From IMG/VR virus record IMGVR_UViG_2558309052_000002: DNA of 40,896 bases. One strand, given 5' to 3'. Below the pieces are notes generated by a model. It was not told the DNA's origin and ran no database searches. It saw only the letters and a program-made list of their open reading frames with translations. Positions 2,113 to 40,896 of the stretch are shown one piece after another. Position numbers and translations under genes: made by a program. The stretch comes from a virus (taxonomy: Duplodnaviria > Heunggongvirae > Uroviricota > Caudoviricetes). How positions within the stretch are numbered: position 1 is the stretch's first letter; each line of letters starts with the position of its first letter.

Positions 2113-2180
2113 TAAAAATACTCCCTTTTGAGTGGTTAAAGTACTGAGATAATGTGGGGAGGATTTGAGAGATAAACGTT

Positions 2181-2696
2181 GGTTTAGGAGAAGGCTCGGC
2201 GCTACCCGTTGGTGTGCCTGTTCCGTGGCCCACCGCCACACCGCCAGCAGGCTGGTTAAAGTGCGACGGGCGCGCCTTTACAAAAGAACAATATCCTGTT
2301 CTGGCCAGAGTCTACCCGACCCTCCGTCTTCCCGATTTACGCGGTGAGTTTATCCGTGGATGGGACGACGGGCGCAAAGTTGATACAGGACGTAAGTTGC
2401 TGTCCGCACAAGGGGCAACGCTGTTAAGAACAGCAATGCTGGATTATTATAACCAGGACACTACGGGAACCTCGGGGATAGTCGGCATGGGATTCAACAA
2501 TGAAGATTCCATTACAGACCTTCGTGAGGGCAGCTTTAAAATGCCGGACGGGACAACATTCAGCGATCCTGTCGTGGCAATGTCAGACAATGGTATGCAG
2601 GCTACTATTCTGACCTCTATCAGAAGCGGGTATGCGAAGGGTATCACTGTCAGACCCCGTAGCATTGCACTTAATTACATTGTGAGGGCAGTTTAA
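2181..2696 (+). CDS. alternative tail-fibre C-terminal variable cassette (A), currently silent
   Basis: Frame open from 2169 with no credible own start. Begins with the shared LGEGSALPVGVPVPWPTATPPAGWLKCDGRAFTKEQ block, then a unique region, ending ...RPRSIALNYIVRAV. Confidence 0.7.
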   Translation, partial: GLGEGSALPVGVPVPWPTATPPAGWLKCDGRAFTKEQYPVLARVYPTLRLPDLRGEFIRGWDDGRKVDTGRKLLSAQGATLLRTAMLDYYNQDTTGTSGIVGMGFNNEDSITDLREGSFKMPDGTTFSDPVVAMSDNGMQATILTSIRSGYAKGITVRPRSIALNYIVRAV

Positions 2697-3310
2697 TGAG
2701 TAACACTGCAGTTCTGGATGAAAACGGTATCGCCACTGTAGCGGGCGATATCACTGTATATCACTATGACGAGGAAACCCGGGAATACACCTCATCCTCT
2801 GTGGAGTATCTCGCCCTTGGGGTGGGTACTCCGGCACATTCGTGCGCCGATGCACCGCCGGAAGCAATTTCGGGTTACGTGGTTTGCCGGACTGCCACGC
2901 TGAACGGGTGGGAGCATGTGCCTGATCACCGCGGCGAGACGGTATACAGCACGGAGAACGGTAACCCCGTTCTGATTACCCAACCGGGTGATTACCCGGC
3001 GGACACCACCACAAAACAGCCAGCCACGCCATGGGATACCTGGAACGGTGAGGCGTGGGTAACCGATACTGAACGGCAGCGAGCCGCAGAACTGGAGGTT
3101 GCCAGACAGCAACGCCAGCAACGGGTGAAACAGGCGATGGCGTCCGTCGATCTTATCAACCTCAAACTGCGTGCTGGTCGCAGTCTGAAACCAGAAGAAA
3201 CGGCAAAACTGAACGCCGTGCTGGATTATATCGACGAGCTGAACGCACTGGATATCAGCAAGGCACCTGAAATCAGCTGGCCGGAAGCGCCACTGGCGCT
3301 TGCCGGCTGA
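2696..3310 (+). CDS. tail fibre assembly protein (chaperone) paired with cassette A
   Basis: 204 aa. ATG overlaps the cassette A stop (TAATG). Resembles phage tail-fibre assembly proteins (Mu U / P2 G type). Confidence 0.75.
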   Translation: MSNTAVLDENGIATVAGDITVYHYDEETREYTSSSVEYLALGVGTPAHSCADAPPEAISGYVVCRTATLNGWEHVPDHRGETVYSTENGNPVLITQPGDYPADTTTKQPATPWDTWNGEAWVTDTERQRAAELEVARQQRQQRVKQAMASVDLINLKLRAGRSLKPEETAKLNAVLDYIDELNALDISKAPEISWPEAPLALAG

Positions 3311-3316
3311 ACGGTA

Positions 3317-3778
3317 TCACGCCGCCCTCACGATATAGTTAAATGCGATATTGCGGGGGCGAGCTGATACATAAGCCCACCAGTCATATCTTTGTGCACC
3401 TTTAGAGGATGCATCAAATATCCACTTTTTGCCATTTAAGACCCCCAGTTGATTAGAGGTTAAAGCGTCACCAAATCCGTATTGTGTAGAGCCGAGCGAA
3501 CTGATATCTCCGGTATCATTATCATCAAAACCGGATACGATAGTCCCTTCCTGAAATGAAAGTAGCGCACGCCCGGTATCAACCTTGCGACCACCGTCCC
3601 ATCCACGGATAAACTCACCGCGCAAATCGGGAAGACGGAGGGTCGGGTAGACTCTGACCAGAACAGGATATTGTTCTTTGGTGAACGTAGCTCCGTTGCA
3701 CTGTAACCAGCCTGCTGGCGGTGTGGCGGTGGGCCATGGAACCGGTACACCAACAGGCAATGCAGAGCCTTCCCCCAA
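3317..3778 (-). CDS. alternative tail-fibre C-terminal variable cassette (B), silent, no ATG
   Basis: 153-codon frame beginning TTG-GGG-GAA (LGEGSALPVG...) 10 nt after the expressed fibre stop; ends ...RPRNIAFNYIVRAA. Diverged homology block (about 85% to A/C). No downstream assembly gene. Confidence 0.6.
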   Translation of the reverse strand: MGEGSALPVGVPVPWPTATPPAGWLQCNGATFTKEQYPVLVRVYPTLRLPDLRGEFIRGWDGGRKVDTGRALLSFQEGTIVSGFDDNDTGDISSLGSTQYGFGDALTSNQLGVLNGKKWIFDASSKGAQRYDWWAYVSARPRNIAFNYIVRAA

Positions 3779-3788
3779 ACCAACGTTT

Positions 3789-5042
3789 CTATGCCGCCCT
3801 TACGATGTAATTAAACGCAATGTTACGGGGACGAATGGTCACATAATTAACCCCATCGCCTCGCGAAGGACCTGCAAATGAAAAACGGGAGAATCCAGGT
3901 TGGTTGTCAACGATTTGGTCATAGTTATTGATTGAATGACCAGACCCAATGTCAAAATTACCTGCGTAATGAGAAAAACTTGTACCATCCTGCCGTGAAA
4001 GCAGATCGCGCCCTGTATCCACTTTTCGCCCGTCGTCCCATCCACGGATAAACTCACCGCGTAAATCGGGAAGACGGAGGGTCGGGTAGACTCTGGCCAG
4101 AACAGGATATTGTTCTTTTGTAAAGGCGCGCCCGTCGCACTTTAACCAGCCTGCTGGCGGTGTGGCAGTGGGCCACGGAACAGGTACACCAACGGGCAGC
4201 GCCGAGCCTTCCCCCAAACCAAGGTAATTGAGGACATCTTTTATACTGCCCTTAGCGATAATAGCGCGACCAATAGCTGTAAGGGTTGCCAGCTCTGCGC
4301 GGTCTGCTCCGGTAAAATAAGGCAACCGATCTGCTGCAGTGGCAAGTCCTGCCAGAGCAGTGAGCGTGGCATCTGCCGGTTGTTTTCCGTTTGCCAGATC
4401 GTATGCAGCCTTGACCGCTTTCGGTGTGGCGGCCAGTATTTCAGACGTGCTGTTGATGGCACTGCTCAATTGTACGGTGCCTTTTGCCGTCAGCGAGGCA
4501 GCAGGCACTCCCGTTATCTGACTCCACGGGTGAGTGTGGCTGACGGGCGCCTTGCCGGCTGCAAGGTCGTATGCAGCCTTGACCGCCTTCGGCGTGGCAG
4601 CCTCAGTTTCTGATTGACTGTCCGTGGCGCTGCTCAGTTGTACGGTGCCTTTTGCCGTCAGTGAAGCCGCAGGCACTCCCGTTATCTGACTCCACGGGTG
4701 AGTGTGGCTGGCAGGCGCCTTGCCGGCTGCCAGGTCGTATGCAGCCTTGACCGCTTTTGGTGTGGCGGCCAGCGTTTCAGAGGTGCTGTTGGTGGCACTG
4801 CTCAGTTGGGTGAACCCCTTAGCTGTCAGTGTCGCGTCCGGGTGGTTACGGGAACGTACGTGTTCAGCCAGTGACTGTGCGGCTTCCTCCGTTTTCTTCT
4901 TCAGCCATTTCGTCCTGTTTGCCAGTTGCCGGGGGGCTCGATTTGATATCCCGTCTGCACCACCCAGAACCGGATCTGATGTCTCCAGTTGATAGATATT
5001 TTCTTCCCACTTTTCTGTTTCATTCAGGTTTCCCATAATCAA
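3789..5042 (-). CDS. tail fibre protein (constant N-terminal part fused to variable cassette C)
   Basis: 417 aa. ATGA overlap with the upstream gpI-like gene; internal 56-aa tail-fibre repeats; C-terminal 140 aa is homology block C plus a unique tip ending ...NIAFNYIVRAA. Confidence 0.9.
   Translation of the reverse strand: MIMGNLNETEKWEENIYQLETSDPVLGGADGISNRAPRQLANRTKWLKKKTEEAAQSLAEHVRSRNHPDATLTAKGFTQLSSATNSTSETLAATPKAVKAAYDLAAGKAPASHTHPWSQITGVPAASLTAKGTVQLSSATDSQSETEAATPKAVKAAYDLAAGKAPVSHTHPWSQITGVPAASLTAKGTVQLSSAINSTSEILAATPKAVKAAYDLANGKQPADATLTALAGLATAADRLPYFTGADRAELATLTAIGRAIIAKGSIKDVLNYLGLGEGSALPVGVPVPWPTATPPAGWLKCDGRAFTKEQYPVLARVYPTLRLPDLRGEFIRGWDDGRKVDTGRDLLSRQDGTSFSHYAGNFDIGSGHSINNYDQIVDNQPGFSRFSFAGPSRGDGVNYVTIRPRNIAFNYIVRAA
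4388..4829 (-). repeat. in-frame tandem repeats (168 bp, about 2.6 copies) inside the tail fibre gene
   Basis: Protein repeat LTAKG(F/T)(T/V)QLSSA.(N/D)S.SE..AATPKAVKAAYDLA.GKAP.SHTHPWSQITGVPAAS occurs twice in full and once in part. Shadow ORFs on + at 4393 and 4729 (336 nt apart) share ARSYAALTAFGVAAS. Confidence 0.85.
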
Positions 5043-7051: not shown

Positions 7052-7105
7052 GGGGGCAGTATTGCCCCCGTGCGGGAACGCTGATATTAAAGGCGTTTAA
7101 AAAGC

Positions 7106-13402: not shown

Positions 13403-13442
13403 CAGGGCAGTATGTCGGGAGAAGCGCGTGACGGATATTAAA
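13403..13442 (-). promoter_or_regulatory. late-promoter-like motif (copy 3), upstream of the tail chaperone and tape measure genes
   Basis: TTTAATATC-N23-CTGCCCTG on the minus strand, same spacing as the two better copies at 19323-19361 and 26787-26825; preceded by a C-rich tract. Confidence 0.4.
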
Positions 13443-13471
13443 GGAGATTAAGAAGAAGGGGCCGGAGCCCC
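13440..13471 (-). terminator. putative intrinsic terminator after the small ORF in the tail operon
   Basis: Minus-strand hairpin GGGGC-TCCG-GCCCC followed by TTCTTCTTAATCTCCTTT, directly after the stop of ORF 13479-13760. Confidence 0.5.
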
Positions 13472-25690: not shown

Positions 25691-26294
25691 AACTGCTGCC
25701 TCCCCATGTGAGATATCGCGGTGCCAGTTCGCGCAGGATGCGCTGCGGATAATGGCGGTTCTCCCGCCAGCTGGCCGCATTGCGTCCGGCATTCACCGTG
25801 GCGACATGTCCGAACCAGCGGGTGCTGTCCAGACCTTTCTGTGATGCAAGCCGCCTGTCCCGTTGTACCCAGCCCAGACCACCGTTATAGCCCGACAGTG
25901 TCATGGCCATACGCTCGCAGTCACTGGCGGCGCTGACACGCTGCCACAGCCAGCGGTCATAGCTGACCAGCGCCCGGATAGCCCATGCCGGATTAAACGG
26001 CTCACGACTGCTCAGCATCGGTATCAACTGGCTTATCCAGTCGGCAGTGGCAGGCATGAACTGCGCCAGTCCCTGAGCGCCAGCCGGCGAGATCGCATCA
26101 GGTCGCCAGCCGCTTTCCTGATGCAGTTGCGCGGCGAAATCGGCCACCGGCGCAGACAGTCCCCATTCAAGCCGGGCATTACGGATCACATCATCGCGAT
26201 ACTGCAGCGCAGCCTGCGGAGGTTGTGCTGCGCATGCCTGGCTGAAAAAGCCGCCACACCAGAGCAACATTGCGACAAAGAATACCCATGCCAT
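25674..26294 (-). CDS. endolysin, SLT-domain lytic transglycosylase with N-terminal signal/anchor
   Basis: From the ATG at 26294: MAWVFFVAMLLWCGGFFSQACAA... then ...LHQESGWRPDAISPAGAQGLAQFMPATA... (soluble lytic transglycosylase catalytic motif). The longer ORF in the track overlaps the holin gene and is less likely. Confidence 0.8.
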   Translation of the reverse strand: MAWVFFVAMLLWCGGFFSQACAAQPPQAALQYRDDVIRNARLEWGLSAPVADFAAQLHQESGWRPDAISPAGAQGLAQFMPATADWISQLIPMLSSREPFNPAWAIRALVSYDRWLWQRVSAASDCERMAMTLSGYNGGLGWVQRDRRLASQKGLDSTRWFGHVATVNAGRNAASWRENRHYPQRILRELAPRYLTWGGSSCVASG

Positions 26295-26786: not shown

Positions 26787-26825
26787 GGAGACAGCATCAC
26801 AAATACAGGGCGCGAAGGATTTTAA
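26787..26825 (-). promoter_or_regulatory. late-promoter-like motif (copy 1), upstream of the lysis cassette
   Basis: TTTAAAATC-N23-CTGTCTCC on the minus strand, 19 nt upstream of the holin ATG; C-rich tract upstream; the CTGTCTCC box can pair with the RBS region (GGAGACA). Confidence 0.55.
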
Positions 26826-26962
26826 AGCGCGTTAAGAGAGCCGGGGATACGGGATGTGCAGGATAAACGATGAATTATTCACAGAGGAGAATACGATATG
26901 ACGCAGACACTGAATCCGGTCATCACTGTCACCGTGTCCGGTCCTGTGGGCAGCGGTAAAAG

Positions 26963-26990
26963 TTACCGTACTGGCGCGAATAGAGGTAAG
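26963..26990. repeat. 28-bp direct repeat, left copy, flanking the IS66-family element
   Basis: TTACCGTACTGGCGCGAATAGAGGTAAG, identical to 29514-29541. The last 5 nt overlap the IS terminus GTAAG. Confidence 0.9.
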
Positions 26991-27015
26991 CGTCAACGGA
27001 GCACCGTATTGACGC

Positions 27016-28629
27016 TTATTTATTGGTGAGTACTACGTTCCATGGCAGGAGTTCGTCAACTCGGTTGGAAGGCCATTCCGGCAGTACGCTCAGGATATGG
27101 CGCAGATACGCTTCCGGATCGATACCGTTCAGACGGCAGGTGCCGATCAGCCCGTACAACAGTGCTCCACGCTCGCCGCCGTGATCGCTGCCAAAGAACA
27201 TAAAGTTTTTCTTTCCGAGACAGACTGCACGAAGCGCTCTTTCCGCAGCATTATTATCCGCCTCCGCCAGACCGTCATCACTGTAATAACAGAGGGCATC
27301 CCACTGATTCAGTACATAGCTGAACGCTTCGCCCAGTCTGGATTTTTTCGACAGCGTACCATTCTTCTCCACCATCCATTCATGCAGCGACGTCAGTAAC
27401 ACTTTGCTTCGCTGCTGCCTGACGGCAAGACGCTCTGACTCCGGTAATCCCCGTATTTCATCCTCGATGGCGTACAGTTCACTGATTCGCTTCAGGGCTT
27501 CTTCTGCCGTCGCACTTTTGCTGCTGATGTATACATCGTGGATTTTTCGCCGGGCATGGGCCCAGCACGCAACTTCTGTCAGTGCACCACCTTCACGTTC
27601 TGCACTGAACAACCTGTCGTAACCTGTGAACGCATCCGCCTGCAGGATACCCCGGAAGGGGCGGAGGTGTTGCTCCGGGTGTTTCCCCTGCCGGTTCGGC
27701 GAGTACGCGAACCAGACCGCTGGAGGAGATGACGAACCCACATTGCGATCATCCCGGACATACGTCCAGATACGCCCTGTTTTCGCCTTTTTCTGACCCG
27801 GTGCCAGTACCTTTACCGGTGTGTCATCAGTGTGAACCTTGCGGGTGTTCATTACATAACGGTACAGGGCATCATTCACCGGTGTCATTAACTGGCAGCA
27901 CGCGTCAACCCAGTTGGAGAGTAAGGCCCGGCTCAGTTCGACACCCTGGCGGGCAAAGATTTCACTCTGACGATACAGTGGCAGATGTTCGCAGTATTTT
28001 CCCGTTAACACGCGGGCAAGTAATCCGGGGCCCGCGATACCACGCTCTATCGGGCGGGACGGCGCCGGTGCTTCAACAATACAGTCACATTTTGTACAGG
28101 CTTTTTTTACCCGTTCTGTGCGGATCACTTTCAGGGCACTGCTCACCAGTTCCAGCTGTTCAGCGCTGACTTCCCCCAGATAATCCAGCTCACCGCCACA
28201 CTCCGGGCAACAGCTTTCTTCTGGCTCCAGGCGGTGTATTTCACGGGGAAGGTGTGCCGGTAACGGACGACGATGGCGCGACTGTCGCAACTGGCGGGGA
28301 ACCTGAGGATCGTCTTCCCGCCCACTGTAACGATCGCTGTCCTGTTCACGTTGTTTCAGCAGAGCCTCAGCCAGTTCAACTTCACGACGCAGTTTTTCAG
28401 AACGGGTACCGAACAGCATCCGGCGCAGTTTTTCTATCTGAGCCCGCAGATGTTCTATTTCCCGTTCATCTTCTTCGATCTTTTCTTCGGCACGTGTCAG
28501 TGCAGAGCGCAGGAAGGCTTCCGTCTCTTCAACCAGACTCAGTTGCTGGTCTTTCTGACGGAGGGCTTCAGCCTGCTCAGAGAGCAACCTTTCCAGCTCT
28601 GCGATGCGAATGAGGTATTTCTGACTCAT
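27016..28629 (-). CDS. IS66-family transposase (TnpC / orf3)
   Basis: 537 aa, N-terminal coiled coil, CxxC...CxxC zinc-ribbon region and DDE-type core; typical IS66 transposase architecture. Confidence 0.9.
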   Translation of the reverse strand: MSQKYLIRIAELERLLSEQAEALRQKDQQLSLVEETEAFLRSALTRAEEKIEEDEREIEHLRAQIEKLRRMLFGTRSEKLRREVELAEALLKQREQDSDRYSGREDDPQVPRQLRQSRHRRPLPAHLPREIHRLEPEESCCPECGGELDYLGEVSAEQLELVSSALKVIRTERVKKACTKCDCIVEAPAPSRPIERGIAGPGLLARVLTGKYCEHLPLYRQSEIFARQGVELSRALLSNWVDACCQLMTPVNDALYRYVMNTRKVHTDDTPVKVLAPGQKKAKTGRIWTYVRDDRNVGSSSPPAVWFAYSPNRQGKHPEQHLRPFRGILQADAFTGYDRLFSAEREGGALTEVACWAHARRKIHDVYISSKSATAEEALKRISELYAIEDEIRGLPESERLAVRQQRSKVLLTSLHEWMVEKNGTLSKKSRLGEAFSYVLNQWDALCYYSDDGLAEADNNAAERALRAVCLGKKNFMFFGSDHGGERGALLYGLIGTCRLNGIDPEAYLRHILSVLPEWPSNRVDELLPWNVVLTNK

Positions 28630-28659
28630 GACCGTTTTTATAATGCGGTCAGGAGTTTT

Positions 28660-29010
28660 TTACAACATTGTCAGTGAGTTACGGCTGGATGTTTTTGGCT
28701 GACGCCAGTCCAGCTTATCGAGGAGCATTGCCAGTTGCGAGCGGGTAATGGATACCTTGCCGTCACGTACCGCAGGCCAGATAAACTGGCCTTCCTCCAG
28801 GCGTTTGGTGAACAGGCACAGACCATCAGCATCAGCCCAAAGAATTTTGACGGTGTCACCCCGTCGGCCACGGAAGATAAACAGGTGACCGGAGAAGGGA
28901 TTATCATTCAGCACATGTTGTACCTGTTCTCCCAGTCCGTTGAAGGATTTACGCATATCGGTAACGCCGGCAACGAGCCAGATACGGGTACCTGATGGGA
29001 GTGAGATCAT
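28660..29010 (-). CDS. IS66-family accessory protein TnpB (orf2)
   Basis: 116 aa, MISLPSGTRIWLVAGVTDMRKSFNGLGEQV...; recognisable IS66 Orf2 family. Confidence 0.9.
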   Translation of the reverse strand: MISLPSGTRIWLVAGVTDMRKSFNGLGEQVQHVLNDNPFSGHLFIFRGRRGDTVKILWADADGLCLFTKRLEEGQFIWPAVRDGKVSITRSQLAMLLDKLDWRQPKTSSRNSLTML

Positions 29011-29432
29011 CTTCCCCTCCCGGTCAGTTCACGGATCAACACTGTGAGCAGCTCTGGCGATGGATTTTCCAGCGTCATGTTACCGTGACGGAATTCCACC
29101 TTGCAGGAACTGGCACTGACTCTGGTCTGAGTGGAAGTGGATAAAGACGGCGCAATGGCCGCCACAGGTTCTTTCTGCTCATCCGGCGTTATTTCTACAG
29201 GTAATAATTCAACGCCAGTGTCAGAAGAGGTCGTTACCGGAAGACGCCGCGAAACACGCCCTTCGTTCTGCCAGAGCCTGAGCCATTTGAAAATAACATT
29301 ATCATTGACGCCATTTTCACGTGCAATCTGTGCAACACAAGCTCCAGGTTGTGATGCCAGTTCCACCATACGAAGTTTGAATTCATTCGAATAGTTTTTA
29401 CGAGGTTCTTTTCGCCAGTCCTGTAATTCCAT
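29007..29432 (-). CDS. IS66-family accessory protein TnpA (orf1)
   Basis: 141 aa, helix-turn-helix-like N-terminus (MVELASQPGACVAQIARENGVNDNVIFKWLR); overlaps orf2 by 4 nt. Confidence 0.85.
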   Translation of the reverse strand: MELQDWRKEPRKNYSNEFKLRMVELASQPGACVAQIARENGVNDNVIFKWLRLWQNEGRVSRRLPVTTSSDTGVELLPVEITPDEQKEPVAAIAPSLSTSTQTRVSASSCKVEFRHGNMTLENPSPELLTVLIRELTGRGR

Positions 29433-29513
29433 ACTTAGATGTCCGTCTATATCAGATGGGCGTCTAAGTTACCAATTCTCGTCTGATGGCTACATACGGC
29501 GGTCAGTTTACGC

Positions 29514-29541
29514 TTACCGTACTGGCGCGAATAGAGGTAAG
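29514..29541. repeat. 28-bp direct repeat, right copy, flanking the IS66-family element
   Basis: TTACCGTACTGGCGCGAATAGAGGTAAG, identical to 26963-26990. The first 4 nt overlap the IS terminus ...CTTAC. Confidence 0.9.
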
Positions 29542-30179
29542 TGGTGAAACAGGAATTCGGAAACAGCGTCATTGTCGACGCCGCAGACGTGGACGGTGAG
29601 CGCCGTATGAGTGGGGATGATCTGAGCACATGGCAGAAACCACGGGCTGGCACAGTGATCAGGCTGGAGGAATACACGGGACAGGGCCTGTTGTCATACG
29701 GCGAGGAGCGTATCTGTCGGACGAATGAGCTGCTGGATGTTATATGCCCCACGGGCCGGCAACCCTGGATACTGCCCGATGCACTGCATGCCACCATTGC
29801 GGCACTGATGACAGTTTACGATCAGGAGCTGCTCATGAAGGAGTTACGTAAACTCACTGGTCAGTCAACAGAATGTTGTTCGTCCCCGAAGTACGGCAAA
29901 CAGGAACACATCCCGATTAACCAGCCTCCCCGGTTCTTCGACGAATACCTTCTGACACCGGAAAATAAAGCTGAGCATGAAGAGATCAAAGCGGCGTTGT
30001 TCCGGGAAATCAGGAAGATTGCTGAAATGCAACTGGAGGGCGGGCTGGACAGAGTGATGGCGAGAGGAGAATGGGCATCGCTGTTTGAAAGAGTTTCCCC
30101 GGAATTACTTCCCCTCGCACTGGCTATCGGGATTATGCAGACAGCGGATAAACCTCACTTACGTTCATTAAACACGTAA
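29541..30179 (+). CDS. hypothetical protein
   Basis: 212-codon ORF from GTG at 29541 (alternative ATG at 29607); no family I recognise. Start lies inside the right flanking repeat of the IS, so its native 5' context is disrupted. Confidence 0.45.
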   Translation: MVKQEFGNSVIVDAADVDGERRMSGDDLSTWQKPRAGTVIRLEEYTGQGLLSYGEERICRTNELLDVICPTGRQPWILPDALHATIAALMTVYDQELLMKELRKLTGQSTECCSSPKYGKQEHIPINQPPRFFDEYLLTPENKAEHEEIKAALFREIRKIAEMQLEGGLDRVMARGEWASLFERVSPELLPLALAIGIMQTADKPHLRSLNT

Positions 30180-30559
30180 CGCATAATCCGGGATACGCAT
30201 TCAGCGATGACTGCATTTTCACCGGTTTTTACTGCATCCAGAAGTGACTCTTTAAATGGTACGGGCCGGGGCTGCAGAAAGGTCGGCATGGCATTGAGCA
30301 GACAGAGCGTTTTTTCCGTGAGGACGACATCAGCCGCTCCCACAGCCAGCAACTGAGAGTAACGAATATAGCTGTTATCCCGAAGCCATATCAGCGTATC
30401 AATAAAACACCGGCACTTTTTCTGGTCGTGATCAACCTGGTCCGGGATATCGAAAAAACCAGAATAAATCAAAACCTGAGGTGCCGGATGCGTGTTCAGT
30501 AATCGGCAGAATATTTTGCCGGTGAGTACATAAAAATCATCATTTAAGGAGTGCATCAT
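30155..30559 (-). CDS. hypothetical protein
   Basis: 134-aa ORF convergent with the previous ORF (25-nt overlap); weak GGGGA RBS; no recognisable motif. Confidence 0.35.
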   Translation of the reverse strand: MMHSLNDDFYVLTGKIFCRLLNTHPAPQVLIYSGFFDIPDQVDHDQKKCRCFIDTLIWLRDNSYIRYSQLLAVGAADVVLTEKTLCLLNAMPTFLQPRPVPFKESLLDAVKTGENAVIAECVSRIMRYVFNERK

Positions 30560-30773
30560 GAATCCCCGATTAACGTTAACAGAACATCAGCGCCGTGCTG
30601 AAGCAGTGAACAATGTTCTGGAAGATATTATCCGGTTATACCGCGGAGAACTGAGTGTCTGTCGTGCCGCTTTTCATTTTCAGGGAATACAAAAGCAGTT
30701 TGATACTTCTGTTTTTGCAGAAGGTATTACTTATGCCCTGGACCGGATAAGGTCAGAAAATCGCCCCGGATAA
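30558..30773 (+). CDS. hypothetical small protein
   Basis: 71-aa ORF with a strong RBS (AAGGAG, 6 nt spacing); predicted helical; no recognisable family. Confidence 0.45.
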   Translation: MNPRLTLTEHQRRAEAVNNVLEDIIRLYRGELSVCRAAFHFQGIQKQFDTSVFAEGITYALDRIRSENRPG

Positions 30774-30827
30774 TCCCTAAACCACATTAACAGAAATCCC
30801 GCCATCCCTGCCGCATCATGAAAGAAC

Positions 30828-30859
30828 GACCAGCCCGGCACCCGAAAGCCGGGCTGGTC
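30828..30859. other. perfect 12-bp stem-loop
   Basis: GACCAGCCCGGC-acccgaaa-GCCGGGCTGGTC, between the 71-aa ORF and the methyltransferase gene; no U-tract on the + side, weak U-rich tract on the - side. Confidence 0.5.
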
Positions 30860-30963
30860 ATCGCCCCACAGGAATGCGCTGTGAGCCGACCAAGGTTCAG
30901 TCAGTCTCGCGAGACCTGACCAGACTGCCATATTTTTTAATAATTGTAAAAGGCTTGCAGATT

Positions 30964-31728
30964 ATGAAAATGCAGACATTACCCATCGTGCCGTGGATTG
31001 GTGGCAAACGCCGCCTTGCAAAACACATTCTGCCGCTGTTTCCGGCGCATGAATGTTATGTGGAGCCGTTTTGTGGGGCAGCAGCGCTCTATTTTCTTAA
31101 GACACCCGGCAAGATCGAAGTCATCAATGATATCAACGGTGAACTGGTGAATCTGTACCGGGTGGTAAAGCATCACCTGGAAGAATTTGTCCGCCAGTTC
31201 AAATGGGCGCTGGTCAGCCGTCAGATCTACAAATGGCTGCAGATCACCCCGGAAGAAACACTGACGGATATCCAGCGTGCGGCACGGTTCTACTACCTTC
31301 AGAAGCAGGCGTTTGGCGGCAAGGTGGCAGAGCACAGCTTCGGTACCTCCACCACATCCCCGCCACGCTTCAACCTGCTACGTATTGAAGAAGAACTGTC
31401 AGCGGCACACCTGCGGCTTTCCAGAACAGTCATAGAACACATGGACTGGCAACAGTGCATTGAGCGTTATGATCGTCCGCACACGCTGTTCTACTGCGAC
31501 CCACCGTACCTGGGTACGGAAGGCTATGGTGTGGATTTTCCTGAAGGGAACTACTCGCGGCTGGCAGAGCTGGCCCGGTGCATCAGAGGAAAAATGATAA
31601 TTTCGGTGAACGACATCCCGCAGATGCGCGAGGTGTTCACTGGACTGAACATACAGACAGTGAATATCAACTACAGTCTGGCGGGTAAACCCACGCCGCG
31701 CCGTGAACTGCTAATCTGCAACTTCTGA
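30964..31728 (+). CDS. DNA adenine methyltransferase (Dam-family, N6-adenine)
   Basis: From the ATG at 30964: MKMQTLPIVPWIGGKRRLAKHILPLFPAHECYVEPFCGAAALYF... (AdoMet-binding region) and ...FYCDPPYLGTEGYG... (DPPY catalytic motif), co-linear with E. coli Dam. Target sequence cannot be read from the protein. Confidence 0.85.
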   Translation: MKMQTLPIVPWIGGKRRLAKHILPLFPAHECYVEPFCGAAALYFLKTPGKIEVINDINGELVNLYRVVKHHLEEFVRQFKWALVSRQIYKWLQITPEETLTDIQRAARFYYLQKQAFGGKVAEHSFGTSTTSPPRFNLLRIEEELSAAHLRLSRTVIEHMDWQQCIERYDRPHTLFYCDPPYLGTEGYGVDFPEGNYSRLAELARCIRGKMIISVNDIPQMREVFTGLNIQTVNINYSLAGKPTPRRELLICNF

Positions 31729-31734
31729 AACAAA

Positions 31735-31759
31735 ACCGGAAAGCACAATGCTTTCCGGT
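31735..31759 (-). terminator. putative terminator downstream of the repressor gene
   Basis: Hairpin ACCGGAAAGC-acaat-GCTTTCCGGT; on the minus strand it is followed by TTTGTTTC. Confidence 0.45.
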
Positions 31760-31844
31760 AAACCAAACAACTTCCACTATGTCACTGGCGATGTTTTCTG
31801 AAAGCATCCAGATCAACCACCTGTCCTTTGTGTCCGGGTCAGTA

Positions 31845-32201
31845 TCAGCCTGCGATTTTTCCTGGTTTTGGCTGAGTATAGAATCGCCCAATCTCAAGAA
31901 ATGAGCGTTGTTGGTCTGGTGTCATGTCGTCAAAAGTATCTATTAGTTTTTGTTTTTCTGGGGAAATTTGATTCTGGTTTCTAGTCATACCATCTGTGCT
32001 CATTCCAGTGAGCAACCAATTTACATCAACATTAAACTCTTGATGCATCTTTAACAGAAACTCCCCTCCAGGCATCGCCTTTCCATTTTCAATCTGACTG
32101 ATACCACCATTAGAAATACCTAAACGAGCTGCAAATTCTCTCTGGTTCAACCCTGCTTTCTTCCTCACAGAAATAACGCGCTCTCCTATATCTTTGCTCA
32201 T
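31845..32201 (-). CDS. CI-like phage repressor (XRE-family helix-turn-helix)
   Basis: 118 aa, MSKDIGERVISVRKKAGLNQREFAARLGISNGGISQIENGK... canonical XRE HTH; divergent from the early operon; operator half-site overlaps its start codon. Confidence 0.85.
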   Translation of the reverse strand: MSKDIGERVISVRKKAGLNQREFAARLGISNGGISQIENGKAMPGGEFLLKMHQEFNVDVNWLLTGMSTDGMTRNQNQISPEKQKLIDTFDDMTPDQQRSFLEIGRFYTQPKPGKIAG

Positions 32202-32218
32202 AAAAGTGAATCTCTATC

Positions 32219-32248
32219 TTGATATGCTCATAATTATGAGCAATAATC
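32219..32248 (+). promoter_or_regulatory. early promoter candidate (TTGATA-N18-ATAATC)
   Basis: -35-like TTGATA (32219-32224) and -10-like ATAATC (32243-32248); the 18-nt spacer is exactly the operator palindrome; sits between the repressor and the early operon. Confidence 0.5.
32225..32242. promoter_or_regulatory. operator: perfect 18-bp palindrome
   Basis: TGCTCATAATTATGAGCA is its own reverse complement; an additional half-site TGCTCATAA lies at 32195-32203 across the repressor start codon. Confidence 0.7.
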
Positions 32249-32294
32249 TAACACATATAAGGCAAACATCATTGCATCAACAAAGGAGACAACG

Positions 32295-32483
32295 ATGACT
32301 GCAGAACAAGTCAAAGCTCTCTTCCGCCAGCGCGGGATCACTTTCACCCGCTGGGCAGAAGAAAACGGCTACAACCGCAATGAGGTATACCGCGTTCTCA
32401 ACGGGCAGACCAAAGCCCGTTACGGTAAATCCCATGAAATCGCCGTGAAGTTGGGACTGAAATCAACAGCTCAGGCGGCCTAA
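32295..32483 (+). CDS. Ner-like / Cro-like small DNA-binding regulator
   Basis: 62 aa, first gene of the early operon (RBS AGGAG); ...FTRWAEENGYNRNEVYRVLNGQ...HEIAVKLGL... resembles the Ner/Nlp family pattern. Confidence 0.6.
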   Translation: MTAEQVKALFRQRGITFTRWAEENGYNRNEVYRVLNGQTKARYGKSHEIAVKLGLKSTAQAA

Positions 32484-40085: not shown

Positions 40086-40535
40086 ATGCAGAAAAAACGC
40101 CTGATACAGCTTATCCATATTGCCCGTAATGAACTGGGTATGGATGAAGACACCTACCGCCAGATGTTACAGGGGCTGACCGGTAAAGCCTCAACCAAAG
40201 GAATGGATACCACACAACTAAACTGCGTGCTGGAATCCATGAAAAAGAAAGGCTTTCGCGTTAAACCAGCCAGAAAAGCCAGCTCCGGTTTACCGCTTGA
40301 TAACCATCCGCAGTCCAGGAAAATTCGTGCGCTATGGCTTGAAATGGCTGCTGCCGGCATTGTTCGTGACCGTTCAGAAAATGCATTAGCGAGGTGGATC
40401 AAGCGGGAAACGGGCATCAGCGCCCTGCGCTGGCTCAGTACTGAACAGGCAAGCAGTGTTATTGAGAAACTGAAGAAGTGGCAGCGCAGAGCTGCGGGAG
40501 TCAAACATGAGCGACCTGAATCAGTTTCGAAGTAA
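40086..40535 (+). CDS. GemA-like protein (Mu gp16 family)
   Basis: 149 aa, MQKKRLIQLIHIARNELGMDEDTYRQMLQGLTGKAS...; immediately upstream of the Mor-family gene, as gemA precedes mor in Mu. Confidence 0.6.
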   Translation: MQKKRLIQLIHIARNELGMDEDTYRQMLQGLTGKASTKGMDTTQLNCVLESMKKKGFRVKPARKASSGLPLDNHPQSRKIRALWLEMAAAGIVRDRSENALARWIKRETGISALRWLSTEQASSVIEKLKKWQRRAAGVKHERPESVSK

Positions 40536-40896
40536 GGGGCCGGAACTCCTGGTGGAACTGGCACAGCATACCTCTGAGACCGTTCGCGAGATTATTGATA
40601 TTGAGCCCGAAGTTGCCGACCAGATTGGTCAGGCCGTCGCGAACCGAATGATGCAGGTCTGGGGCGGGCAAAACGTTTATTTCCCGATGGGCATGGTATG
40701 GAAGGTCAGTCAGCGCGACCGGGAAATCTTCAGGGAGTTTAACGGACGCAACCACCACGAACTGGCCCGCAAATTTGGTGTTTCGCTTCAGTGGGTCTAC
40801 AGCGTGGTTAAGCGGGTAAGAAAAGAAGAACTGGATCGGATGCAGGGCAAGCTATTTGCTGATGAACCCGATGCAGATACGGAGAAAAAAGAGTAA
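40507..40896 (+). CDS. mor: Mor/C-family transcription activator
   Basis: 129 aa; core ...WGGQNVYFPMG...SQRDREIFREFNGRNHHELARKFGVSLQWVYSVVKRVRK... matches the Mor/C activator family (HTH at C-terminus). Stop codon is the last triplet of the window. Confidence 0.8.
   Translation: MSDLNQFRSKGPELLVELAQHTSETVREIIDIEPEVADQIGQAVANRMMQVWGGQNVYFPMGMVWKVSQRDREIFREFNGRNHHELARKFGVSLQWVYSVVKRVRKEELDRMQGKLFADEPDADTEKKE

Follow-up and report, generated by a model that had tools for sequence, protein, structure and literature searches.

In bacteriophage Mu, the com-mom system provides a late, activator-dependent and translationally gated form of adenine modification that acts against restriction. Mom itself is an acetamido-transferase of the acyltransferase superfamily (PMC3299994). 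In FluMu-type prophages, mom is replaced behind com by Dam-like methylases such as Hin1523, Hia5 and Nma1821, which carry a DPPY motif, are distantly related to Dam, and have been proven to modify adenines in a near non-specific manner that protects DNA from many restriction enzymes (PMC3299994). A further case is the Pseudomonas Mu-like phage B3, where ORF47 (“similar to Mu Com”) is followed by a methylase, ORF48 (Braid et al. 2004, as cited in PMC3299994), that stands in the place of Mom and had not been assayed for activity by 2011 (Drozdz et al. 2012, PMC3299994). Here we describe a relative of B3 ORF48, an orphan adenine methylase encoded at 30964-31728 (+ strand) in a 40,896-nucleotide stretch of tailed-phage DNA (IMG/VR record IMGVR_UViG_2558309052_000002, the whole of which we call the window), together with a structured RNA of ~140 nucleotides (nt) that directly precedes its start codon. 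By analogy, the locus may resemble Mu com-mom in its late, activator-dependent and translationally gated mode of action against restriction, although the enzyme is a methyltransferase where Mom is not.

The methylase gene itself is known, catalogued and ordinary. An identical gene, in the same Phi2 prophage and at the same aroA-ycaL site of the E. coli strain EC958, was named M.EcoMIV (EC958_1101) by Forde et al. 2015, who listed it as an orphan type II methylase of the D12 class carried by Phi2 (PMC4659465). Its transcription in EC958 was significantly below that of dam in mid-log cultures in lysogeny broth (LB), and the methylome obtained by single-molecule real-time (SMRT) sequencing yielded no motif attributable to it; the study gave no specificity, regulation or family context for the enzyme (PMC4659465). 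M.EcoMIV is conserved in clade C of sequence type ST131 and absent from clade A, and the same protein (WP_000783854.1) is annotated both in EC958 Phi2 and in strain S931B. What is new in the present analysis is the leader RNA, the mom-like reading of the locus and the family context. A preliminary description of the window, made from its letters, had missed the M.EcoMIV name, the BcepMu-like type of the phage and the methylase itself as the likely mom analogue.

A conserved structured RNA before the methylase gene

When E. coli and Klebsiella phages are compared, the 150 nt before the methylase start are better conserved than the coding region, and mean column identity over the ~270 aligned upstream columns reaches 90%, as against ~82% DNA identity over the methylase gene region. 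An alignment of 18 enterobacterial loci contains hairpins with compensatory changes in this segment. The covariance model built from that alignment (R1) matches the window at 30819-30975 with 141 bits, and the conserved structured 5' leader RNA to which it corresponds occupies 30826-30963 on the + strand. The same model matches directly before the methylase gene, or before com, in ~50 further loci from diverse phage types, and all of its strong matches are on the coding strand and reach as far as the start codon of either the methylase or com. It also finds the element in phage B3 and in 10 of the 11 viral contigs tested, while a DNA pattern made from the leader only retrieved 24 viral contigs, 23 of which have a methylase within ~100 nt downstream.

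Across an alignment of 57 leader sequences, compensatory changes were found at 35 of 39 pairs; 88.6% of the cells at these pairs are paired, compared with 37-45% when partners are slid, and the covariation score is 0.435, compared with at most 0.077 for slid controls, all of these covariation numbers being inflated by the fitting of the alignment to the model. One hairpin, H2, covaries although it lies outside the model, and appears as CACAG/CUGUG, GCAG/CUGC, CACUG/CAGUG and ACGG/CCGU in different relatives. Since a search of 30500-32400 of the window against Rfam 15 gave no relevant match (E-value, E, <= 1), the leader is not a recognisable member of any curated family; six relatives searched against the same release at E <= 10 gave only weak, sub-threshold matches to antisense RNAs. 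Taken together, these data provide good support for a conserved, covarying RNA structure that had not been described previously. The D12-methyl RNA motif, a candidate cis-regulatory RNA of D12 methylase genes, embodies the same idea of a structured RNA before a D12 methylase, whereas the leader of the window is without any Rfam match.

In phage B3, as in the window, the leader RNA lies upstream, with a match of 25.6 bits (E = 2e-4) at 25727-25874 of the B3 record (L094 5728-5875), just upstream of the com gene ORF47. It overlaps both of the tiny annotated reading frames ORF45 and ORF46, which are therefore probably not genes.

The architecture of the leader can be read along the + strand of the window. 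Hairpin H1 (GACCAGCCCGGC...GCCGGGCTGGTC, 30828-30859), in which all 12 pairs covary, stands at the predicted 5' end of the transcript. It is followed by H2 (CACAG-N7-CUGUG, 30867-30883; 92% of cells paired, compensatory changes at four of five pairs), whose 3' arm is shared with the 5' strand of a long-range helix, P2 (CUGUGAGCC, 30879-30887). This strand, predicted by RNAalifold and with compensatory changes at eight of nine pairs in the 57 sequences, is complementary to the region that runs from the ribosome-binding site to the start codon. There, at 30950-30960, a Shine-Dalgarno (SD) element, AAGG (30950-30953), overlaps the 3' strand of P2 (GGCUUGCAG, 30952-30960). Two more hairpins precede it: H3 (30893-30926), which is supported by covariation and has the perfect palindrome GTCTCGCGAGAC (30904-30915) at its apex, and H4 (UUUUUA...UGUAAAA, 30934-30951), just 5' of the ribosome-binding site, with 100% of cells paired in the enterobacterial set and five of six pairs covarying in the wide set.

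Because H2 and P2 both use CUGUG and both covary, they represent alternative, mutually exclusive states, and alternative helices around the initiation region are the usual signature of a translational switch. For the window leader, the calculated fold energies are -54.8 kcal/mol with H2 enforced, -52.4 kcal/mol with P2 enforced and -55.8 kcal/mol without constraint, and in the unconstrained fold the AUG is mostly paired and the SD is not. The three folds are thus close in energy, and the initiation region is embedded in structure. In 37 of 49 distinct relatives, as against ~16% of shuffles, the apex of H3 forms a perfect palindrome without spacer and with a length of at least 8 nt, and its sequences are very different between them; RNA dimerisation, a DNA dyad site and hairpin-templated correction are possible causes. 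The palindrome GTCTCGCGAGAC was also considered as a shared activator site and rejected; since it occurs only once in the window, it is taken as part of hairpin H3 and not as a promoter element.

Upstream of the leader lies a predicted promoter with the architecture of three others in the prophage. Perfect TTAA-N6-TTAA dyads number four in the window, where 0.16 would be expected. Three of them, all on the - strand, are followed after 23 nt by a -10-like hexamer: GATGCT for the dyad at 26822-26835, in the late promoter of the lysis operon (holin), which serves as the reference architecture and whose layout is conserved in relatives; CATACT for the dyad at 13438-13451, upstream of tail assembly and tape-measure genes; and AATACT for the dyad at 7087-7100, upstream of baseplate genes. 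We consider these three sites to be candidate Mor-dependent late promoters of the enterobacterial BcepMu-like phages. A candidate for the factor that would act on them is the Mor-family late transcription activator encoded at 40507-40896 (+ strand), a gene cut by the end of the window and annotated at the homologous position in EC958 as “Mor transcription activator family protein”. The fourth perfect dyad (1955-1968) lies inside the invertase gene, with no -10-like hexamer at the right distance, and was treated as unrelated.

The predicted activator-dependent, late-type promoter of the methylase (30777-30819, + strand) shares this architecture, and consists of CTAA-N6-TTAA at 30777-30790, 23 nt, and CATCAT at 30814-30819. 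The transcription start is predicted at ~30826, at the foot of H1, which puts the centre of the dyad near -43. The activator dyad of Mu C/Mor lies ~43 bp upstream of the start, in the same geometry. Of 18 enterobacterial relatives, 17 have a dyad with at most one mismatch ahead of the leader. In Photorhabdus and Xenorhabdus one perfect dyad serves both the holin gene and the methylase gene, which diverge from it, and on either side a -10-like hexamer follows at a distance of 23 nt. A possible small-RNA promoter on the - strand (30970-30943) was set aside, as its -10 is not conserved in the alignment.

The methylase, its target and its family

The methylase open reading frame (ORF) is intact from its ATG at 30964 to its TGA at 31728 and encodes 254 amino acids (aa). 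PF02086 (MethyltransfD12) matches residues 11-234 over profile positions 1-248 of 253 (E = 6e-29; 102 bits, cutoff 22), and the “Dam family” model TIGR00571 is passed narrowly (116.6 bits, cutoff 114.85). The elements follow in the alpha-class order, with motif I, the S-adenosylmethionine (SAM)-binding loop (EPFCGAAA, residues 34-41, 31063-31086, + strand; aligned to EPFVGAGS in Dam and EPFVGGGA in DpnM), preceding the recognition hairpin (residues 117-136) and then the catalytic motif IV (DPPY, residues 179-182, 31498-31509, + strand), which is read directly in the sequence and aligns to the DPPY of Dam and DpnM. Motif I is strongly kept in the 78 distinct family sequences aligned. Among solved structures, those of DpnM (E = 6.5e-17) and E. 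coli Dam (E = 5.5e-14) come closest, with T4 Dam only marginally similar (E = 0.004). Judged by its catalytic core, the protein is an intact D12/Dam-family N6-adenine DNA methyltransferase, and the accession identity with WP_000783854.1 makes it M.EcoMIV; the preliminary description had been right to call it a complete enzyme of the D12 class with a DPPY motif. A 284-aa version starting in frame at 30874 (GenBank PQ738613) was rejected, as the 30874-30963 extension is not conserved and has in-frame stops in 17 of 19 related loci; we therefore take 30964 as the correct start. An AlphaFold2 model of the protein, made from a 19-sequence alignment at 85-89% identity, had a mean predicted local distance difference test (pLDDT) score of 50 and was discarded.

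With E. coli Dam, T4 Dam and DpnM the window methylase has in common the PF02086 fold family, the motif order and DPPY. It differs from Dam in falling far under the cutoff of the E. coli Dam equivalog NF008152 (67 bits, cutoff 441) and in not keeping the residues of the DNA-reading hairpin. The predicted DNA-recognition beta-hairpin (FGGKVAEHSFGTSTTSPPRF, residues 117-136, 31312-31371, + strand) aligns to Dam residues 119-138. In Dam-DNA structures, the hairpin residues Y119, N120, L122, R124, P134, R137 and Y138 read GATC; at these positions the window methylase has F, G, K, A, S, R and F, which keeps only the aromatic residues and the arginine and changes Y119/N120/L122/R124/P134 to F/G/K/A/S. 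The signature of the GATC enzymes Dam, DpnM and T4 Dam, [FY]NG[LM]xRxN...FNVPxGRY, is replaced by FGGKVAEH...TTSPPRF. Since this variant hairpin is conserved across the 78 distinct family sequences, including that of B3, the family probably shares one recognition mode that is not Dam's, and since the GATC-reading residues are not conserved, a GATC target is not to be assumed. A literature search of partial coverage found no experimentally determined specificity for any family member. The lack of a new motif in EC958 fits a silent enzyme and a GATC-specific one alike, and the low transcription favours silence.

The gene is present in 525 of 5426 complete E. coli genomes, with 392 records at least 99% identical, and close homologues (85-89% identity) are common in Salmonella, Citrobacter, Klebsiella, Enterobacter, Serratia, Yersinia, Pectobacterium and Erwinia. 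In data with one genome per species, 571 stretches encode relatives of the methylase, and the family loci analysed here are the best 80 of these 571; they show 62-87% identity and extend to Burkholderia, Cupriavidus, Chromobacterium, Nitrosomonas, Methylophaga and Pseudomonas. All 17 loci at 80% identity or more are enterobacterial BcepMu-like prophages, in which the slot and orientation of the methylase are constant and the surrounding cargo is variable. More distant members lie in other prophage types, near baseplate, tail, protease or capsid genes, and no neighbour is conserved across 61 such loci, whose 590 ORFs fall into 410 clusters, the recurrent ones being phage structural genes. Relatives are also found in isolated phages, among them Burkholderia phi1026b gp26 (65.5%), Halomonas phiHAP-1 (62%) and Acinetobacter phages (58%), with more distant ones (~35%) in Campylobacter and Helicobacter phage records. 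Because the methylase is conserved without any constant neighbour and in varied prophage types, we take the family to be genuinely orphan, phage-borne and under strong purifying selection.

In 17 of the 80 loci, a Com-like small ORF (MNTDIRCGHCGRK...IKCPRCRTLNH) lies directly upstream of the methylase, after the leader. These ORFs match Pfam PF10122 (Zn_ribbon_Com, “Mu-like prophage protein Com”) with 53-70 bits against a cutoff of 22.9, so that members of the family carry a true homologue of the Com of the Mu com-mom system. The same pair is present in phage B3, whose ORF48 is 64% identical to the window methylase over its full length (E = 3e-124). In B3, com lies between leader and methylase and the cassette sits among siphovirus tail genes, whereas in the window the cassette is without com and lies beside the immunity region. 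The family moves between phage types as a cassette of ~140-nt leader RNA, optional com and methylase, and it repeatedly occupies the role of mom. The Hia5 branch of mom replacements is a different one, as B3 ORF48 lies outside its 1000 best matches (PMC3299994), and so, by inference, does the family of the window methylase.

Com-methylase cassettes in a phage context occur on seven scaffolds of Methylophaga thiooxydans DMS010 (L076, L077, L079, L081, L084, L085 and L091) and at three chromosomal sites of Paludibacterium denitrificans (L053, L064 and L066), which is consistent with several copies of a transposable phage. In one viral contig (L102 7679-7801), model positions 10-141 of the leader are left but no methylase follows, apparently a deletion remnant of the cassette.

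The methylase as a candidate mom analogue

In light of these comparisons, it appears likely that the window methylase is itself the mom analogue of a BcepMu-like phage. On balance, we favour the fuller explanation that it is a late, tightly gated enzyme that protects phage DNA and is functionally analogous to mom, with its dependence on Mor, its late timing, the gating of its translation and its role against restriction all being inferred. In a lysogen, the gene would be essentially off. Upon induction, a Mor-type activator would bind the CTAA-N6-TTAA dyad and fire the late-type promoter, giving a transcript that starts at hairpin H1. The leader would then gate translation, with H2 and P2 competing for one strand and embedding the ribosome-binding region; gating by a long structured leader would be a difference from Mu com-mom. 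The enzyme so produced would add methyl groups to the adenines of phage DNA during replication and thereby shield packaged genomes from restriction by the next host, the job done by Mom in Mu and by Hin1523/Hia5 in FluMu-like prophages. Three roles had been put forward for the gene in the preliminary description, and of these the protection of phage DNA is the one that kinship with B3 ORF48, the association with Com and the late-type promoter best support. A change of host methylation in the lysogen, another of the three, is disfavoured by the EC958 data on the identical gene, which was transcribed below dam and yielded no SMRT motif (PMC4659465). The refutation suggested alongside these roles, a lack of methylation difference between lysogen and cured strain, would be uninformative if the gene is a late one or if its target is GATC in a Dam+ host.

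Several observations weigh against this explanation. BcepMu itself has no methylase in the corresponding slot and no TTAA-N6-TTAA dyad, and a tblastn search of the window gave no Com-like ORF. The dyad before the methylase departs from the perfect form at one position, and the -10 of the same promoter, CATCAT, is a weak one; in Klebsiella-type relatives, the distance from dyad to -10-like hexamer is 30 nt, not 23. A weak sigma-70-like promoter within the leader (30916-30944) makes leaderless-type expression possible. For the leader of the window, enforcing P2 costs 3.4 kcal/mol relative to the unconstrained fold, in which the SD lies in a loop, and an enzyme that targeted GATC would add nothing in a Dam+ host. 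In H1, A-C positions outnumber G-U positions (65 vs 29), so that part of the element may act on the - strand, and a simple RNA hairpin does not explain the perfect palindrome at the apex of H3. These last features are what would be looked for if the upstream element were no mRNA leader, and controlled the methylase either as a small RNA, separate or antisense, that terminates at H1 on the - strand or as a DNA-level element such as a dyad site for a dimeric protein. H1 is indeed followed by a U-rich tract on the - strand, the zero-spacer palindrome of H3 is far above chance, and in two relatives there are sub-threshold Rfam matches on the - strand opposite H1-H2, to ctRNA_pGA1 (30.7 bits, L034 4845-4923) and to SymR (28.4 bits, L076 4702-4765), which hint at a possible cis-antisense RNA terminating at H1. 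We nonetheless find this alternative doubtful, since P2, H3 and H4 together have 139 G-U against 59 A-C positions, which favours the + strand, since the long-range helix P2 pairs with SD-proximal sequence and covaries, since the promoter-like site on the - strand of the window is not conserved, and since the element always runs up to the start codon of whichever gene comes first in the cassette.

A second group of alternatives concerns the enzyme. It could be, as the main rival reading, a GATC-specific Dam isoenzyme that tops up the Dam methylation of fast-replicating phage DNA, for instance to escape MutH nicking or DpnII-type restriction or to serve methylation-dependent phage regulation, and that is redundant and invisible in Dam+ E. 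coli. It passes TIGR00571, matches the Dam and DpnM structures, is annotated in databases as “DNA adenine methylase”, and would, as a GATC enzyme, also leave no extra motif in EC958. This possibility is nevertheless unlikely in view of the distance to the Dam equivalog cutoff, the family-wide replacement of the GATC hairpin signature, with alanine at the position of Dam R124, the abundance of the family in Burkholderia and other beta-proteobacteria, and its coupling to Com in the manner of broad-protection modifiers. It is considerably less probable that the gene acts in lysogenic conversion, being expressed from the prophage and imposing a new methylation pattern that re-programmes host expression or vaccinates the chromosome. 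Its place in a variable cargo slot by the immunity region, convergent with the repressor, is typical of a moron, and a weak sigma-70-like promoter is present; these are countered by the low transcription and unassigned motif in EC958, by the late-type promoter architecture and structured leader, and by the linkage of its relatives to Com. Least probable of all is that the gene is decaying or no longer active, or that it supplies the modification function of an unrecognised restriction or defence pair whose other member is a neighbouring ORF. No activity was detected in EC958, the neighbours are of unknown function and one of them, ORF242, is split by IS66 in the window, but the catalytic motifs are undamaged, the protein stays 62-87% identical between E. 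coli and relatives as far as Cupriavidus, with the kept loci complete and free of frameshifts, and the neighbours are neither conserved with the methylase nor matched by any nuclease or PADLOC profile.

Building on the late, gated methylase favoured above, we would tentatively raise a more specific possibility, for which the odds are rather lower: that the ~140-nt element represents a class of regulatory RNA not seen before. It would act as a two-state H2/P2 translational switch that senses a cassette-borne signal (the methylase, SAM or S-adenosylhomocysteine (SAH), or an antisense transcript), with a second role for the palindromic apex of H3 in RNA dimerisation or as a DNA dyad site, and it would gate a host-dangerous, non-GATC and possibly relaxed methylase that needs mom-like control at several layers.

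The gene occurs in about one in ten complete E. coli genomes, including those of the pandemic ST131 clade C, and has relatives in prophages across Enterobacterales and Betaproteobacteria. If it is indeed a late, gated anti-restriction enzyme, the constant absence of its motif from lysogen methylomes would be accounted for, and phage particles and transduced DNA would carry methylation that eases passage through the restriction barriers between strains. The leader RNA would be a new and readily testable example of RNA-level control of a DNA-modification enzyme, complementing the Com-mom paradigm, and its sequence and structure form a signature for locating such cassettes in phage genomes. Should the specificity prove relaxed, the family would be of interest beside footprinting enzymes of the Hia5 and EcoGII type.

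Prophage setting and neighbouring features

The window opens with aroA (1-1284), and the remainder is a single prophage, 99.9% identical to “Escherichia phage PhiKM” (Bcepmuvirus) and collinear with the aroA-ycaL element of E. coli ST131 strain EC958 (prophage Phi2), from which it differs by an additional IS66 insertion near the methylase and by the inversion of a tail-fibre segment. The genes for lysis, head and tail run leftward from ~26.8 kb, and early genes run rightward from ~32.3 kb (a BcepMu gp16-family regulator, DDE transposase, ExeA-type ATPase, Gam and Mor); with late and early genes diverging from the centre, the layout is BcepMu-like and not organised as in Mu. The last prophage gene before aroA is the invertase gin (1540-2112, - strand), and nothing lies between the two, which bears out the earlier statement that no mom-like gene follows gin. 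In Mu, mom lies at the right end, after gin, whereas the methylase of the window is found elsewhere.

The methylase belongs to a variable cargo slot between late and early genes, which holds ORF242 (split by IS66), two small ORFs, the methylase and a convergent repressor. Its position between an accessory module and the repressor stands as previously described, with the correction that the accessory module includes an IS66-family insertion. The neighbouring ORFs at 29541-30179 (+), 30155-30559 (-) and 30558-30773 (+) have no match in Pfam, NCBIfam or PADLOC, and their PHROGs families are of unknown function. Searches of these three databases gave no nuclease or known defence protein among the neighbours, which, together with the lack of a conserved partner in the 61 distant loci, agrees with the earlier view that no restriction endonuclease is adjacent. 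The idea that the neighbours are a hidden endonuclease or defence partner was rejected, as they have no profile matches and are not conserved alongside the methylase. On the other side, 116 nt downstream, is the convergent gene of a helix-turn-helix (HTH) repressor of the Cro/CI type (31845-32201, - strand; HTH_3, E = 4.6e-15, and Phage_CI_repr), and the earlier placement of the methylase beside the immunity region is correct. The intrinsic terminator of the repressor gene (31735-31759, - strand), an 11-bp stem followed by TTTTGTTT on the - strand, lies between the two genes. The best sigma-70-like promoter of the region, TTGATA-17-AATAAT with 10 of 12 matches, is found at 32219-32247, between the divergent repressor and BcepMu gp16-family genes, and is likely to mark the early promoter and operator region.

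The IS66-family element (ISEc23-like) occupies 26984-29517 and comprises tnpA (29007-29432), tnpB (28660-29010) and tnpC (27016-28629), all on the - strand. It interrupts a cargo ORF of 242 aa (WP_000194951.1), whose first ~30 codons lie at ~26900-26990 and whose remainder lies at 29514-30179, and it is absent from EC958 and PhiKM. The flanks of the insertion carry an unusually long direct repeat of 19-28 bp; the usual IS66 repeat is 8 bp. The PhiKM record (PQ738613.1) is a permuted “partial genome” that uses the non-conserved 284-aa methylase start, has no coding sequence for the repressor found in the window at 31845-32201, and names one ORF of the tail-fibre region “Fe2+ ABC transporter permease”. 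The tail-fibre segment of the window (2179-4225) is flanked by inverted repeats of ~210 bp at 2179-2389 and 4009-4225, and appears to be an active Gin/Cin-type host-range switch, found here in the opposite orientation to EC958.

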